This document shows, piece by piece, positions 25,384 to 28,395 of a DNA stretch of 28,808 nt. Below the pieces are notes generated by a model. The model was not told the origin of the DNA, did no database searches, and saw only the letters and a program-made list of their open reading frames with translations. Each line of letters begins with the position of its first letter. Positions within the stretch are counted from its first letter, which is position 1. The translations under genes and the position numbers were made by a program. The DNA is from Escherichia coli. GTDB lineage: Bacteria > Pseudomonadota > Gammaproteobacteria > Enterobacterales > Enterobacteriaceae. The stretch lies in assembly GCF_003334315.1 (NCBI RefSeq), contig NZ_QOWR01000061.1; one strand, given 5' to 3'.

Positions 25384-26649
25384 TTAAGCTTCAGCCGCCA
25401 GCATCTCTTTCTTACGTTGGCTAATACGCTTAACCAGCATTACGGAAACCACCGCACCACAGAATGCGAAGCAGGCCATAATGCCAAACACGATTTTGTA
25501 GCCAATAATCCCCGGATTTAAATCCAGAATGTAGCCATACAGACTGAAGCAGAACATCGCCGGGGCGTAACCAATAAAGCTACCCAACGCCATCGCCGCG
25601 CCTGTTTTATTTTCAGCAATTTTTGCTTCGCCGATAGGTGCAAAAAATACGGCTCGCTGTGTAAAGACTATCGCGCCAAAGCCCAGCGTACATGCCATCC
25701 CTAAATAGACCGGCATACTTTCGTGCGGCAGCATAATCAACAGTACGAGCGCAGCGGTACTGATGATAAAGGTGTAGCATAGATATTTACTCGGCGATTT
25801 CAGGATCTTATCTGAAATCATGCCACCAATCGGTCCACCAATCATTTTCAGACAGTATTGGTTAATGATGCCGTAAGCCCCCACCAGCGCAACGGGCAAT
25901 AGATAGATGTTTTTCAGGAATGGAATGAAGAATGTCAGGCCACAGTAAACCGCGTAAACGAAGAAGACGTTGAAAGCGATAAGCCAGATAGTTTTGTCTT
26001 TCAGCACCGAGGTCATACTGGTGTGTTGCGATGCCCCATCTTCTTTTTTCACCTCAACGGACGGTGCCTCTTCTTTGTCATTCAGGACAAAGAAAATAAT
26101 AATGCCTACGGCAATCACAATAAGGGAATAGAACCAGATGCCTGCTTTAAAACCTAATAAGCCACTGCCAAACCAGGTAAATACTGCCAACGCAGAAAAT
26201 GCCACCACGGTATCGACAATGCCACGCCCTGTTTCGAAGAAGCCAAACAACCGACCTTGTTGTTCGCTATTGCCCAATCGACTTACCGACTTGAGCAAGA
26301 CCGGCCAGTTCATCATGTCGCAAGTAACGCCAAATAGCGCCCAGACAAAGAGGATGCCCCAATACCCCGGCATTGTCGTCAAATAAACACCCAGTAATCC
26401 TGTCGCAATGAGTGAGAATGACATGGTGTATCTGCGCGGTAGTTTATCGGCAAAATAAATAGACAGAAAAAAGCCCACTGTGGTAACAAATGAGTTTACC
26501 GACATGGCATTACCAATTTGACCATTGGTCAAATGGAAATATTCCTGCATCGGGATATAAAACGCATCTTTCAGCGACGGTAATTTATAAATTGTACCGC
26601 CACACAGTGTTAATAGACTAAATAACGCCCATTTCTTTTTCGTGAGCAT
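25384..26649 (-). CDS. yihN: MFS-superfamily transporter YihN (substrate unknown)
   Basis: 421-aa polytopic membrane protein; last gene of the yihLMN unit. Confidence 0.8.
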   Translation of the reverse strand: MLTKKKWALFSLLTLCGGTIYKLPSLKDAFYIPMQEYFHLTNGQIGNAMSVNSFVTTVGFFLSIYFADKLPRRYTMSFSLIATGLLGVYLTTMPGYWGILFVWALFGVTCDMMNWPVLLKSVSRLGNSEQQGRLFGFFETGRGIVDTVVAFSALAVFTWFGSGLLGFKAGIWFYSLIVIAVGIIIFFVLNDKEEAPSVEVKKEDGASQHTSMTSVLKDKTIWLIAFNVFFVYAVYCGLTFFIPFLKNIYLLPVALVGAYGIINQYCLKMIGGPIGGMISDKILKSPSKYLCYTFIISTAALVLLIMLPHESMPVYLGMACTLGFGAIVFTQRAVFFAPIGEAKIAENKTGAAMALGSFIGYAPAMFCFSLYGYILDLNPGIIGYKIVFGIMACFAFCGAVVSVMLVKRISQRKKEMLAAEA

Positions 26650-26750
26650 AACATCCCCTAAGCGATTTTTAAAATCACTGTTTTAAAGGCAATAAGATAC
26701 CGACCATTCATATAGAATGGTTTTATTAACTGCGTATGAGTTAAAACTTA

Positions 26751-27731
26751 TTAGTGGTTCAGAAGATGGTTTGCCTCTTGTTTGATTTGTTGTAGTACGT
26801 TACGCACATGATTTATCTGATTAATTGCATCTTCTTTTTCTTTACGTAACCGCGCATCCAGTAAATGATTTTCTGGTAGGGGTGTTTCACTCATCTGGCG
26901 ATAAGGGATCCACGGATTATCATCTTCGTCTTCAAAGCGGAACGCCGGCGCATAGTAATCAACCTCTTCTTCCAGGCCATATGCCGTCACCTGCGGCTCA
27001 TCATCACCAAGGCAGATAAGGTGCGTTAATAACGCTTTGAACGGCATATCACCCTGACCTGAAATACAGGCTTTATGACCCAGGCCACCCTGTTCTTTAA
27101 CGATCAAGGCATCTTTAATATGGACCTGGGTAATATGCGGTGCCATCGTTTTTAAGGCGTCGATGGGATGCTCATTTGCATTGATCATGTTCGCAAAATC
27201 AAACAGTAAGGAAAGAGACTCCATCTCACTTTCTTTGACCAGCGACACCAGCTCATGACTTTTTAAATCTTCATGCTGCTCAATCGTAAAAGTCAGGCCG
27301 CAGTCCTGATACGTTTCCCGTACATAGGCAATGTCGTTAGCGATAATCGATAATACGTCGCGCAAATTACCTTCATAACGTGGATAAAAACGTACGGACG
27401 ATGCCCCAGTTTTCAACGCGATGGCGACGGCTTCGTCAATAGATGCCTTATCTGAGGCGCTGGTTTCAATATGAATATCAAGGTTCAGACGGCGGGCTTT
27501 ATCTCCAAAGGCAGAGAGTTCTTTATCGTCCATATTACCAAGAGAAAAACGCTCGCCATCCAGAACATGGATTTTGACGCCACGTAGATTATTTTCACTT
27601 GCGATATCAAGTAAATCAGCAGGCAACACTCTTTCCAGCCGCATATTTAAATGAAAGGCATAAGCATGTAAATAAAGAGGAAGAGTGTCGACACGTTGTA
27701 GAATCTTTCTTGCGTTATTTATTGTCATCAT
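26751..27731 (-). CDS. yihM: Xylose-isomerase-like TIM-barrel protein YihM (putative sugar phosphate isomerase/epimerase; function unknown)
   Basis: 326-aa ORF; recognised family by sequence; sits between a regulator and a transporter. Confidence 0.8.
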   Translation of the reverse strand: MMTINNARKILQRVDTLPLYLHAYAFHLNMRLERVLPADLLDIASENNLRGVKIHVLDGERFSLGNMDDKELSAFGDKARRLNLDIHIETSASDKASIDEAVAIALKTGASSVRFYPRYEGNLRDVLSIIANDIAYVRETYQDCGLTFTIEQHEDLKSHELVSLVKESEMESLSLLFDFANMINANEHPIDALKTMAPHITQVHIKDALIVKEQGGLGHKACISGQGDMPFKALLTHLICLGDDEPQVTAYGLEEEVDYYAPAFRFEDEDDNPWIPYRQMSETPLPENHLLDARLRKEKEDAINQINHVRNVLQQIKQEANHLLNH

Positions 27732-27738
27732 AAAACAC

Positions 27739-28395
27739 CTACAGATTAATGATGAGGTCTACGGCCTCAAATCGCCAATATTCAATATCTATCTGGACAA
27801 TATTGCCTTGCTGGTCGGCGCGATGCTTTTCAATTAAGATCGCTGGCATACCCGCAGAACCGCCAAGATACTTGCTGATATCGCCCGGCATTCTGACGGG
27901 TTTGAAAATCAATTTTTTTACTACCGTCTCTTTTTGGTAGCACTTTTCCCAGACTGCAGAAAATGAGTGGTTTTCAAGTTGTTCAATAAAACCCGGAGCA
28001 ACTTCAGGATTAATATATGTTTCGTGATAGAAAACTTTATGTCCTTCCAGCGCCCCCCAGCCGGTGATGCGATAGAGTTCAGTTGATGATGTCACTGCAA
28101 TCAGTGGCGCGAGCGTCTCGGGAATATCGCTGGTACGGCTTTTCTCGGTAAACCCCCAGGAAGGTTCCCGCCCTTGCTCAATTGCGGCCCGCTGAAAGCT
28201 CGCCGACAGCTCCGGACTGTAATTAAATCGCGGCTGGGTCACGAACCACCCCTTACGATCCTTACGGAAGATTTTGGATTCTGCCTCGAGGTTCAACAAC
28301 GCCTGGCGCAGCGTCATACGTTTAATGCCCAGCAGTTCTCCCAGCTCTCTTTCTGAAGGGAGTTTTCCACCCGGCGTGGTGATGCCATCTTTCAA
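27739..28395 (-). CDS. yihL: GntR/HutC-family regulator YihL, 5'-truncated by IS1 (possible pseudogene)
   Basis: ORF begins at TTG 28395. The frame stays open upstream to the IS1 junction (28436), encoding ...YQSTVENAKEKLDRWLKDGITTPGGKLPSERELGELLGIKRMTLRQAL..., a GntR HTH lacking its first residues and native ATG. C-terminal UTRA-like domain. Confidence 0.6.
   Translation of the reverse strand: MKDGITTPGGKLPSERELGELLGIKRMTLRQALLNLEAESKIFRKDRKGWFVTQPRFNYSPELSASFQRAAIEQGREPSWGFTEKSRTSDIPETLAPLIAVTSSTELYRITGWGALEGHKVFYHETYINPEVAPGFIEQLENHSFSAVWEKCYQKETVVKKLIFKPVRMPGDISKYLGGSAGMPAILIEKHRADQQGNIVQIDIEYWRFEAVDLIINL

Follow-up and report, generated by a model that had tools for sequence, protein, structure and literature searches.

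The yihLMN genes of Escherichia coli form a mobile, PhnR-like-regulated cassette, truncated by IS1 in this strain, with a possible amine-bearing organophosphate or phosphonate substrate

Introduction

What compound do the products of yihL, yihM and yihN handle in Escherichia coli? The three genes are part of a shrinking set of conserved K-12 genes without known function, and in neither the searchable literature nor the September 2026 RefSeq annotation of K-12 did we find a substrate assigned to them, which agrees with an earlier note on this locus. That note proposed a compact operon of regulator, enzyme and transporter for the uptake and isomerisation or epimerisation of a sugar or sugar derivative. 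We analysed the genes in an E. coli stretch of 28,808 nucleotides (‘the window’) and among homologous loci. The regulator–enzyme–transporter logic of the trio holds. Our overall view, to which we give a probability of roughly 45%, is that yihLMN is a cassette repressed by a PhnR-like regulator and directed at a substrate with an amino group and a phosphate or phosphonate group, and that IS1 has beheaded it here.

Layout of the window

All three open reading frames (ORFs) were found where they had been noted earlier, on the minus strand (Table 1), with products 99–100% identical to annotated E. coli yihN, yihM and yihL. Window YihN does not differ from YihN as annotated in E. coli HeN100, and window yihM has three substitutions relative to K-12. 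The gaps between the genes are 7 nt (yihL–yihM) and 101 nt (yihM–yihN), so a single operon fits. The longer spacer carries a short hairpin (CCATTC-TATAT-GAATGG), and promoter and terminator predictions within it were not above those for shuffled sequence; across positions 25000–28808, too, the scan gave no more sites than in shuffled sequence. The sole match in an Rfam scan was the fdoG SECIS element. As described before, yihLMN is transcribed opposite to the sulfoquinovose cluster, converging on plus-strand ompL-yihOPQ...; the boundary between cassette and cluster is the ompL/yihN intergenic region with its gccggatg...catccggc motifs.

Table 1 Features of the yihLMN region in the window
Feature	Coordinates	Strand	Description	Basis
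ompL/yihN convergent intergenic region	25294..25383	.	REP-like GC-rich palindromes	
yihN	25384..26649	-	421 aa; predicted MFS importer; last gene in cassette	ORF
yihM-yihN intergenic spacer	26650..26750	-	101 nt	sequence read
yihM	26751..27731	-	326 aa; xylose-isomerase-like TIM-barrel enzyme, predicted metal-dependent	ORF
yihL ORF from TTG	27739-28395	-	218 aa	
yihL remnant	27739..28436	-	codons 6-236	compared with intact yihL
IS1, right-hand 372 nt	28437..28808	-	terminal inverted repeat and insB C-terminal part; same orientation as yihL	

IS1 has removed the start of yihL

Intact yihL encodes 236 aa (MAENQSTVEN...). In the window, yihL sequence extends to 28436 and is followed by an IS1 terminal inverted repeat (..CATAAAACACTATCAATAAGTTGGAGTCATTACC|AATCCACCGTAG..), placing the insertion point after nucleotide 13 of the coding sequence. 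The IS1 end sequence GGTAATGACTCCAACTTATTGATAG is the reverse complement of 28437–28461, the C-terminal part of insB forms an ORF at 28452–28718, and IS1 goes on to the window end; the other IS1 end and the target-site duplication lie beyond it. The terminal inverted repeat, and then the insB frame, identify the element as IS1, and megablast of this part matched ‘IS1-like element IS1A/IS1B family transposase’ features in thousands of E. coli records. The same IS1–yihL junction was found in none of the 5,426 complete E. coli genomes searched.

The first five codons of yihL and every expression signal are gone from the window. A TTG at 28395, without a credible Shine-Dalgarno sequence, is the one in-frame start that survives; this boundary is merely the first in-frame TTG and not the true start. 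With IS1 inserted after nucleotide 13, the ‘compact operon’ of the earlier note therefore has no promoter, operator, ribosome-binding site or start codon of its own in the window, and YihL is almost certainly not made in this strain. Expression of yihM and yihN would come solely from read-through out of IS1, and no outward IS1 promoter could be claimed from the scan of 25000–28808. Owing to IS1, the yihLMN module in this strain is probably either inactive or deregulated.

YihL is a PhnR-like autoregulator

YihL has the N-terminal winged-helix GntR domain and the C-terminal UTRA domain of the HutC subfamily, confirming its earlier placement; its orthologues carry PF00392 and PF07702, and window YihL matched HutC-type models over its full length. 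The best NCBIfam match, also full length, was PhnR (TIGR03337; 181.8 bits, E 1.5e-53, with the next-best model at 52 bits), a score under the curated cutoff of 296.75 bits that places YihL outside the PhnR equivalog. Genes phnSTUV or phnWX were not found beside yihL in enterobacterial loci, and the alpha-proteobacterial loci have only PhnS/T/U-like transporter genes, below cutoff. FraR, which regulates the Salmonella fructose-asparagine locus, shares 45% identity with PhnR (PMC5351497) and so belongs to the same regulator clade as YihL; for this reason, likeness to PhnR is no proof of a phosphate or phosphonate effector.

Upstream of yihL, in 61 of the 62 YihL-containing loci (gamma-, beta- and alpha-proteobacteria), lies the palindrome TGGTTTAAACCA, which is perfect, with at most one mismatch across loci, and conforms to the GT-N-TA-N-AC operator type of the HutC subfamily. 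It occurs about once per 10–17 kb locus, and its flanks are not conserved. Published ChIP-exo in MG1655 gave a single dominant YihL peak (signal/noise 60) at 4058436–4058459 (PMC8464067 supplement); after correction for a 1,977-bp genome-version offset, the peak spans −34 to −11 from the yihL ATG and covers the palindrome. From this overlap we infer that YihL binds exactly TGGTTTAAACCA. Its own promoter is the sole strong YihL site, and sulfoquinovose promoters are not among the ChIP-exo peaks (PMC8464067 supplement). YihL is a HutC/PhnR-like autoregulator with an essentially single-target regulon. In one published study, yihL appears just as a linked marker (PMC4759930).

yihLMN is a mobile cassette independent of the sulfoquinovose genes

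The trio is conserved among about 80 YihM loci, 65 of which have a YihN-like MFS gene and 62 YihL. It is found across gamma-, beta- and alpha-proteobacteria at unrelated chromosomal sites, with or without sulfoquinovose genes. In Raoultella, Pseudocitrobacter and Enterobacter, yihLMN is followed directly by yihX-yihY-dtd-fabY, in some Citrobacter by just part of the sulfoquinovose genes, and Serratia, Hafnia, Morganella, Aeromonas, Photobacterium, Acinetobacter and others carry it at unrelated sites. We conclude that yihLMN is a self-contained, horizontally mobile three-gene cassette.

The position beside the sulfoquinovose cluster, to which the earlier note drew attention, is real in the window but incidental, for in most genera no sulfoquinovose genes accompany the cassette. 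Neither conserved co-occurrence nor co-regulation with yihO-yihW was found, and the cassette is functionally independent of the cluster. That yihLMN serves the sulfoquinovose (yih/csq) pathway as an accessory is scarcely credible: the sole support is adjacency in Escherichia and some Citrobacter, set against loci at unrelated sites or with just part or none of the sulfoquinovose genes beside them and against a regulator whose one strong binding site is its own promoter.

YihM is a TIM-barrel enzyme with a putative metal site

The description of YihM as a xylose-isomerase-like TIM barrel was borne out by three approaches: it matched PF01261 (E 1.4e-8), its AlphaFold2 model (pLDDT 96.2) is a (beta/alpha)8 barrel of eight strand-helix repeats, and Foldseek gave a probability of 1.00 to many xylose isomerase-like TIM barrels, so that profile and fold together place it in PF01261. 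Beyond the barrel, the model shows a C-terminal extension, which is conserved, and a long helix (288–325). The best PDB fold matches, at 11–18% identity, were the Art22 isomerase, structures without known function, ketose 3-epimerases, UlaE and AsbF. The YihM family is small (about 640 cluster representatives among 1.8 billion), with no characterised member; likewise, we found no characterised relative of YihM, and solved structures were at most 18% identical.

Family-wide invariant residues are S91, R114, E151, H153, E154, D178, N181, H204, R265 and S281. Three of these, E151, D178 and H204, line up with positions of the metal sites in AsbF and Art22, and together with E254, conserved except in the most distant members, their conservation points to an E-D-H-E divalent-metal site. 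In the profile match to AsbF (E 5e-15), the alignable residues were the metal ligands alone. This comparison with characterised TIM barrels had been proposed in the earlier note, which would have given way had YihM lacked conserved catalytic residues; because the putative metal ligands are conserved, that objection fails.

The same fold and E-D-H-E motif occur in ketose 3-epimerases and sugar-phosphate epimerases, and could speak for uptake of a neutral or ordinary sugar (for example, a rare ketose) that YihM would isomerise or 3-epimerise in a first step towards glycolysis. One isomerase is enough to link a rare sugar to central metabolism, and a distant YihM homologue (36% identity) sits in a kinase-aldolase-type sugar operon, flanked by an FGGY kinase and a class II aldolase. 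We nevertheless consider a neutral sugar unlikely, as similarity to characterised epimerases was negligible: E 0.82 to D-tagatose 3-epimerase, a non-significant BLASTP E of 0.04 to FrlC and 17.1 bits to the L-ribulose-5-P 3-epimerase model NF009689 (cutoff 200). Likeness to the ketose and sugar-phosphate 3-epimerases (DPEase, DTEase, UlaE/SgbU and FrlC) is thus at the level of fold only, with 12–15% identity. A neutral sugar also fits poorly with YihN, which is not of the sugar-porter type, and leaves unaccounted for the RidA, phosphatase, PhnS-like ABC, MocR and Na/Pi symporter partners described below.

YihN weakly resembles anion transporters

The domain assignment of YihN as an MFS transporter was upheld. 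Its best NCBIfam match, a weak one, was TIGR00881 (PgtP/organophosphate:Pi antiporter subfamily; 70.6 bits against a curated cutoff of 407.75), followed by the D-galactonate transporter family (37.6 bits). UhpT/GlpT/PgtP organophosphate:phosphate antiporters are also the best-scoring curated family for the Paracoccus YihN homologue (68.8 bits), although YihN scores far under the family cutoff and is not assigned to that family. Charged residues K22, D111, E139, R142, D146, K268, R332 and E341 are invariant; no solved structure matched YihN by sequence. These weak matches suggest an anion-type MFS protein and not a sugar porter. In the TCDB classification, YihN is presumably grouped with the mycoplasma glycerophosphodiester permease GlpU. 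A dye-uptake phenotype reported for a yihN deletion is non-specific (PMC8131027).

Partners of YihM homologues suggest an amine-bearing organophosphate or phosphonate

Genes accompanying YihM homologues encode PhnR-like or MocR-like regulators, anion-type MFS proteins or PhnS/AfuA-like ABC importers, a RidA deaminase paralogue, Na/Pi symporters (recurring in three loci) and histidinol-phosphate phosphatase paralogues of two unrelated folds. Alpha-proteobacterial YihM (45–47% identical) shares an operon with a PhnS-like binding protein, PhnU2/PhnT2-like ABC components and a HisN-like phosphatase, with a divergent MocR-type regulator alongside; the binding protein is also related to AfuA sugar-phosphate and P5PA PLP-binding proteins. 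The neighbours in Pseudogulbenkiania are an ABC importer, a HAD-IB histidinol-phosphatase paralogue and a Na/Pi symporter. The RidA paralogue bears an Arg105-type motif and occurs as an insertion in Proteus/Providencia and in Photobacterium, with a different gene order in each; these paralogues are similar to each other and may reflect a single acquisition. In Marinobacterium, YihL controls transporters of other kinds, an Opp/Dpp-type ABC system and an NCS1 permease, neither of them a typical carrier of organophosphates. For the most distant YihM homologues, the contigs were too short to give useful context.

Because of these partners, we infer that the substrate is of an amine-bearing organophosphate or phosphonate type and not a neutral sugar. 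Sugar uptake and isomerisation, as first proposed, is not the best reading of a cassette whose transporter is not a sugar porter, whose regulator is nearest PhnR and whose relatives keep phosphate- and amine-type partners. All the family matches behind this substrate class score below curated cutoffs, and the fold relatives of YihM, mostly sugar and sugar-phosphate isomerases and epimerases, count against it. Phosphoethanolamine, phosphoserine, histidinol phosphate, PLP/PMP, inosamine phosphate, glucosaminate and glycerophosphodiesters were weighed, and no single substrate stood out.

The anion could instead be a carboxylate, with YihM acting as a dehydratase or ammonia-lyase on an amino-sugar acid (a 2-amino-2-deoxy-aldonate, such as glucosaminate). 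YihM would then act in the manner of UxuA, a mannonate dehydratase, and form an enamine for RidA to hydrolyse to a 2-keto-3-deoxy acid. Such a reaction would account for RidA, for the sufficiency of a single enzyme, for amine-sensing regulators and for an anion-type MFS (the D-galactonate family match). The same fold includes dehydratases that eliminate a group adjacent to a carbonyl or carboxylate, and AsbF was the second-best PDB profile match. We hold this to be quite improbable, given that YihM has no specific similarity to UxuA or IolE (17.1 bits to the IolE model TIGR04379; cutoff 290) and that alpha- and beta-proteobacterial phosphatases, Na/Pi symporters and organophosphate-type binding proteins would be left unaccounted for.

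A phosphodiester such as glycerophosphoethanolamine or glycerophosphocholine, imported by YihN and cleaved by YihM as a metal phosphodiesterase, is highly improbable. The fold is common to endonuclease IV, and the products would be an amino-alcohol phosphate or free amino alcohol and glycerol or glycerol-3-phosphate, with which phosphatases of the histidinol-phosphate (amino-alcohol phosphate) type downstream of YihM would agree, as would the presumed grouping of YihN with GlpU. However, YihM has a single E-D-H-E site, as in isomerases and lyases, a trinuclear zinc site like that of endonuclease IV would be conjectural for it, and RidA would be unaccounted for. In favour, the Morganella cassette abuts the eut operon, and genes for BetA-like choline dehydrogenases neighbour the cluster in Rhizobiaceae and one Rhodobacterales genome, but no more than one or two lineages show either adjacency, and betA, which converges on the regulator gene, is not co-transcribed with it.

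A candidate mechanism

For an amine-bearing organophosphate or phosphonate, the cassette might work as follows. YihL would sit as a repressor on TGGTTTAAACCA, overlapping its own promoter, and keep the operon off until an effector arrives; YihN would import the substrate, and YihM, as a divalent-metal TIM barrel, would convert it in one step to a product usable in general metabolism. The substrate would most likely be a small molecule in which a primary amine is combined with an anionic group of the phosphate or phosphonate type. An amino-alcohol phosphate, the phosphate of an amino sugar or amino-sugar acid, and an aminophosphonate are candidates; a neutral sugar is improbable. Judged from alignment, the metal is probably held by E151, D178, H204 and E254 and the anion by R114, R265 and R278, with H153, E154 and K206 as probable acid/base groups. 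Proton abstraction would be followed by isomerisation or group elimination, giving an enamine or imine whose hydrolysis would release a keto product and ammonia. Such a deaminating isomerisation or elimination, metal-dependent and needing no cofactor, with an amine-bearing organophosphate or phosphonate as its substrate, would be a reaction new for the xylose-isomerase fold and is a doubtful proposal for the YihM family. If true, gut and soil proteobacteria would gain a one-enzyme route to carbon, nitrogen and phosphorus with YihL as a specific sensor; if the substrate class holds, there would be a new enterobacterial nutrient route for amino organophosphates and new chemistry on a well-known fold. 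The operator, the near single-target regulon, an enzyme family with candidate residues and the narrowed substrate class yield a short list of testable compounds.

Comparison with known systems

The Salmonella system of PhnR with phnSTUV-phnWX, for 2-aminoethylphosphonate uptake and breakdown, resembles yihLMN in joining a local repressor, an importer and a short catabolic route; the PhnR model matches YihL from end to end, and alpha-proteobacterial YihM operons use PhnS/PhnU2/PhnT2-like ABC components. In contrast, YihL is below the PhnR cutoff, the cassette lacks the PhnW aminotransferase and PhnX phosphonatase, YihM is a TIM barrel of a different superfamily, and import in enterics is by an MFS protein instead of an ABC system.

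Amadori catabolism by E. coli frlABCDR (fructoselysine) and Salmonella fraRBDAE (fructose-asparagine) is likewise under a GntR/HutC-type local regulator and acts on amino compounds through phosphorylated intermediates, and frl includes a xylose-isomerase-like TIM barrel, FrlC. Unlike these systems, yihLMN has no kinase or deglycase and a transporter of another family, and YihL is just 21% identical to FrlR.

By profile and fold, the best solved relatives of YihM are the Art22 isomerase (PDB 8z1i, 9koj; profile E 2.4e-19) and AsbF, a 3-dehydroshikimate dehydratase (PDB 3dx5; 5.1e-15). The aurantinin paper makes no mention of Art22, so the chemistry of that enzyme gave no guide here. The Glu, Asp and His metal-site positions align, but identity is just 15–17%, and the two enzymes belong to unrelated genomic contexts, antibiotic and siderophore biosynthesis. 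Present in YihM and not in Art22 or AsbF are an EQHED motif and the conserved C-terminal extension of ~80 residues, which contains R265, R278, S281, T283 and the helix 288–325.

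The operon and its interruption by IS1

Three ORFs of the window were identified by megablast as E. coli yihN, yihM and yihL (99–100% identity). YihN has the same sequence as in strain HeN100; relative to K-12 there are three substitutions in YihM and two in YihL. Because the gaps are only 7 nt (yihL–yihM) and 101 nt (yihM–yihN), a single operon fits. The earlier note's description of a compact regulator–enzyme–transporter operon thus stands for the ORFs and their spacing, but it missed that yihL is cut by IS1. It was right about orientation: ompL-yihO-yihP-yihQ and the genes following are on the plus strand, convergent with yihN. 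REP-like GC-rich palindromes (gccggatg...catccggc) occupy the convergent ompL–yihN gap.

Intact yihL encodes 236 aa with the N-terminus MAENQSTVEN. In the window, yihL sequence ends upstream at 28436, where it meets an IS1 terminal inverted repeat (...CAATAAGTTGGAGTCATTACC abutting AATCCACCGTAG...). The insertion point is after nucleotide 13 of the coding sequence, so the operon is cut off from its start codon, ribosome-binding site, promoter and operator, and this copy of the cassette is disrupted. The TTG at 28395 is simply the first in-frame start usable by an ORF finder; no convincing Shine–Dalgarno sequence was found for it, and translation from it would be predicted to truncate the first DNA-binding-domain helix. 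A promoter scan from the IS1 end to yihM gave no promoter-like site above background.

The IS1–yihL junction was present in 0 of 5,426 complete E. coli genomes searched, so it might come from a lineage rich in IS1, for instance Shigella. Independent IS1 insertions were found in other strains, in yihL (PEC422), yihM (MRE162) and yihN (ETEC1749) (loci L094, L095 and L096, with megablast matches), and IS30 lies in the cassette region of two wastewater strains. The cassette has therefore been inactivated repeatedly in natural E. coli, where it is evidently dispensable and occasionally lost.

Coordinates of features in the window and in loci (L numbers) from other genomes.
Feature	Position	Strand	Remark
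yihN	25384–26649	minus	ORF, 421 aa
yihM	26751–27731	minus	ORF, 326 aa
yihL as called	27739–28395	minus	ORF, 218 aa, TTG start
Partial IS1	28437–28808		terminal repeat and 3' part of insB; continues past window end
InsB C-terminal ORF	28452–28718		within partial IS1
REP-like palindromes	25294–25383		
Sulfoquinovose genes	~13512–25293		
Segment compared with L076 and L012 (Raoultella and Citrobacter sp. R56)	10555–17187		
SECIS_3 element	3726–3784		
fdoG split ORFs	3144–3731 and 3780–6194		
Palindrome TGGTTTAAACCA	L001 2964–2975		60 further loci among L002–L087
Multi-copy operators	L067 7125–7209; L070 7128–7209; L079 7128–7212; L087 635–671		Marinobacterium/Oceanospirillaceae, Rhodobacterales
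Cassette divergent from eut	L002 1–8846; L025; L039; L049; L065		Morganella
RidA paralogue	L003 8302–8703; L040; L041; L044; L050 9100–9477; L052; L055		
Phosphatases adjoining YihM	L083 8948–9736; L087 2543–3328; L048 5620–6288		HisN-like and HAD-IB folds

YihL and its operator

A perfect 12-bp palindrome, TGGTTTAAACCA, lies upstream of intact yihL and, owing to IS1, outside the window. First spotted in E. coli, Morganella, Serratia and Hafnia, it recurs, allowing for one mismatch, ahead of yihL in 61/62 YihL-containing loci from gamma-, beta- and alpha-proteobacteria, typically as one copy per 10–17 kb locus. ChIP-exo in MG1655 gave three YihL sites, of which the dominant one (4058436–4058459, signal/noise 60.5) adjoins yihL and the other two are weak (about 5; Gao et al. 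2021, PMC8464067, supplement). With yihL starting at 4060447 in NC_000913.3 and an offset of 1,977 bp between the two genome versions, the corrected peak is at −34 to −11 from the yihL ATG, with the palindrome inside it at −25 to −14. YihL is thus essentially a single-target autoregulator of yihLMN. From the behaviour of its family, YihL would repress yihLMN until an effector releases it.

Marinobacterium/Oceanospirillaceae loci have four operator copies in tandem, ~22–26 bp apart, between divergently transcribed genes, and there are two copies in a Rhodobacterales genome; such arrays suggest cooperative binding and a broader local regulon in these loci.

Evidence that the cassette is independent of the sulfoquinovose genes

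Scanning one genome per species, with ORFs called and proteins clustered, yielded 80 YihM loci; a YihN-like MFS gene lies beside YihM in 65/80 and YihL is present in 62/80. The trio occupies unrelated chromosomal sites in Escherichia/Citrobacter, Serratia, Hafnia, Morganella, Buttiauxella, Aeromonas, Photobacterium, Acinetobacter, Neisseriaceae and others, which makes it a mobile, self-contained cassette. Directly behind it come yihX-yihY-dtd-fabY in Raoultella, Pseudocitrobacter and an Enterobacter, and only yihW-V-U-T in some Citrobacter (for example, Citrobacter sp. R56). Since the sulfoquinovose genes are absent or partial in these genera, they are a variable insert beside the cassette rather than its partner, and in the window they behave as a variable insertion between yihN and yihX. 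An autorepressed importer with a single enzyme, independent of sulfoquinovose, is well supported. In Morganella the cassette is divergent from the ethanolamine-utilisation (eut) microcompartment operon; this adjacency, seen in one genus only, may be coincidence.

The openly accessible literature searched assigns no substrate to any of the three genes, in agreement with the earlier note, and the K-12 RefSeq record (September 2026 snapshot) still calls all three ‘putative’. The genes are long known and a locally regulated uptake-and-conversion cassette is an ordinary type of system, here built around YihM, a member of a small orphan enzyme family.

YihM, a predicted TIM barrel with a conserved putative metal site

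The sole Pfam match of YihM is the generic xylose isomerase-like TIM barrel family (E 1.4e-8), and no NCBIfam model exceeded 17 bits. The family is small, with just 643 relatives at E < 1e-3 (46 at E < 1e-30) among 1.84 billion cluster representatives. Across an alignment covering 26–83% identity, G51, S91, R114, E151, H153, E154, E160, D178, N181, P189, H204, R265, S281 and E298 are invariant, H22, Y24, N29, Y116, K206, Q247, R278 and T283 nearly so, and E254 varies only in the most distant members. AlphaFold2 predicts with very high confidence (pLDDT 96.2, pTM 0.93) a (beta/alpha)8 barrel with a conserved extension at the C-terminus and a long final helix.

The best PDB matches, all at 11–18% identity, include Art22 isomerase, ketose 3-epimerases and UlaE, the C-glycoside deglycosidase DgpBC, the dehydratase AsbF and several structural-genomics ‘sugar phosphate isomerase/epimerase’ proteins whose function is not known; AlphaFold database relatives bear generic names only. 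In profile alignment, E151, D178 and H204 coincide with metal-site residues in AsbF and Art22. The putative catalytic metal site is therefore conserved, so the earlier note's reading is not refuted by a loss of catalytic residues. No specific reaction is transferable from these relatives. A neutral-sugar epimerase, for which the ketose 3-epimerases would be the model, seems unlikely, and YihM has no significant similarity to FrlC, the epimerase encoded in the fructoselysine operon of E. coli and likewise a TIM barrel; an amino-aldonate dehydratase is rather improbable.

Three 36–39% identical homologues from low-GC metagenomic organisms (P0134, P0138 and P0140) begin with leaders resembling signal peptides or those of lipoproteins, and so may be periplasmic or secreted forms.

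Regulators, carriers and neighbours point to a possible substrate class

Of the NCBIfam models, that of PhnR (regulator of 2-aminoethylphosphonate utilisation) fits YihL best and along its whole length, with 181.8 bits and E 1.5e-53; the score misses the equivalog cutoff (296.75 bits) but is far above those of the next models (PhnF, 52 bits; HutC, 50 bits). Solved-structure relatives of YihL are NagR/YvoA and DasR. The MFS protein YihN best matches the PgtP organophosphate:phosphate antiporter subfamily (70.6 bits) and the D-galactonate transporter family (37.6 bits), both weakly and both anion-type. A sequence search found no solved relative of YihN. Both positively and negatively charged invariant residues occur in YihN within membrane segments or close to them. 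A yihN deletion mutant takes up less of many dyes, and its authors call the function unknown (PMC8131027).

Deviations from the standard cassette are informative. A distinctive RidA (imine deaminase) paralogue, with motifs SGCCPF and PARSCVEV, accompanies YihM and YihN in two gene orders: RidA-YihN-YihM after a YheO-like regulator in Proteus and Providencia, and YihL-YihM-RidA-YihN in Photobacterium. True enamine/imine deaminases have the same arginine motif, PARSCVEV. A 45–47% identical YihM lies, in Ensifer, Sinorhizobium, Rhizobium and Aminobacter, in an operon with an ABC importer (PhnS-related binding protein, with the sugar-phosphate binder AfuA and the PLP binder P5PA as PDB relatives; PhnU2-like permeases; PhnT2-like ATPase, 423 bits, cutoff 457.7) and a phosphatase of inositol-monophosphatase fold that resembles HisN (253.6 bits, cutoff 275), divergent from a MocR-type regulator gene. 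Pseudogulbenkiania has ABC permeases, ATPase, HAD-IB phosphatase, Na/Pi symporter and YihM in that order; its phosphatase is paralogous to the histidinol-phosphate phosphatase of beta-proteobacteria (195.6 bits, cutoff 280). Each phosphatase scores below its histidinol-phosphate phosphatase cutoff; these look like amino-alcohol-phosphate phosphatases recruited independently beside YihM. Na/Pi symporters are present in three YihM loci. In Paracoccus and Sporosarcina the regulator found with YihM-YihN is of MocR type, and in Marinobacterium the four operators separate an Opp/Dpp-type ABC system from yihL-yihM-NCS1 permease.

We put a probability of roughly 0.4–0.5 on a small substrate bearing an amino group as well as an anion of phosphate or phosphonate type, because the regulators relate to primary-amine sensors (PhnR-like, MocR-like), the importers to organophosphate and phosphonate carriers, an imine deaminase is dedicated to the cassette, the phosphatases, of two unrelated folds, each resemble their lineage's own amino-alcohol-phosphate phosphatase, and phosphate symporters occur; all the family matches behind this class are under their cutoffs. 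Two caveats apply: Salmonella FraR, of the fructose-asparagine locus, is likewise 45% identical to PhnR (PMC5351497), and the Marinobacterium transporters are not organophosphate types. A role of YihM as a phosphodiesterase acting on glycerophosphodiesters, which would leave RidA unexplained, we consider highly improbable. On an amino-phosphate or amino-phosphonate substrate, YihM would act by metal-assisted proton abstraction, followed by isomerisation or beta-elimination via an enamine or imine.

Elsewhere in the window, fdoG is split by an in-frame TGA, at which Rfam places a SECIS_3 element (80.6 bits); this is the expected selenocysteine site of formate dehydrogenase-O.
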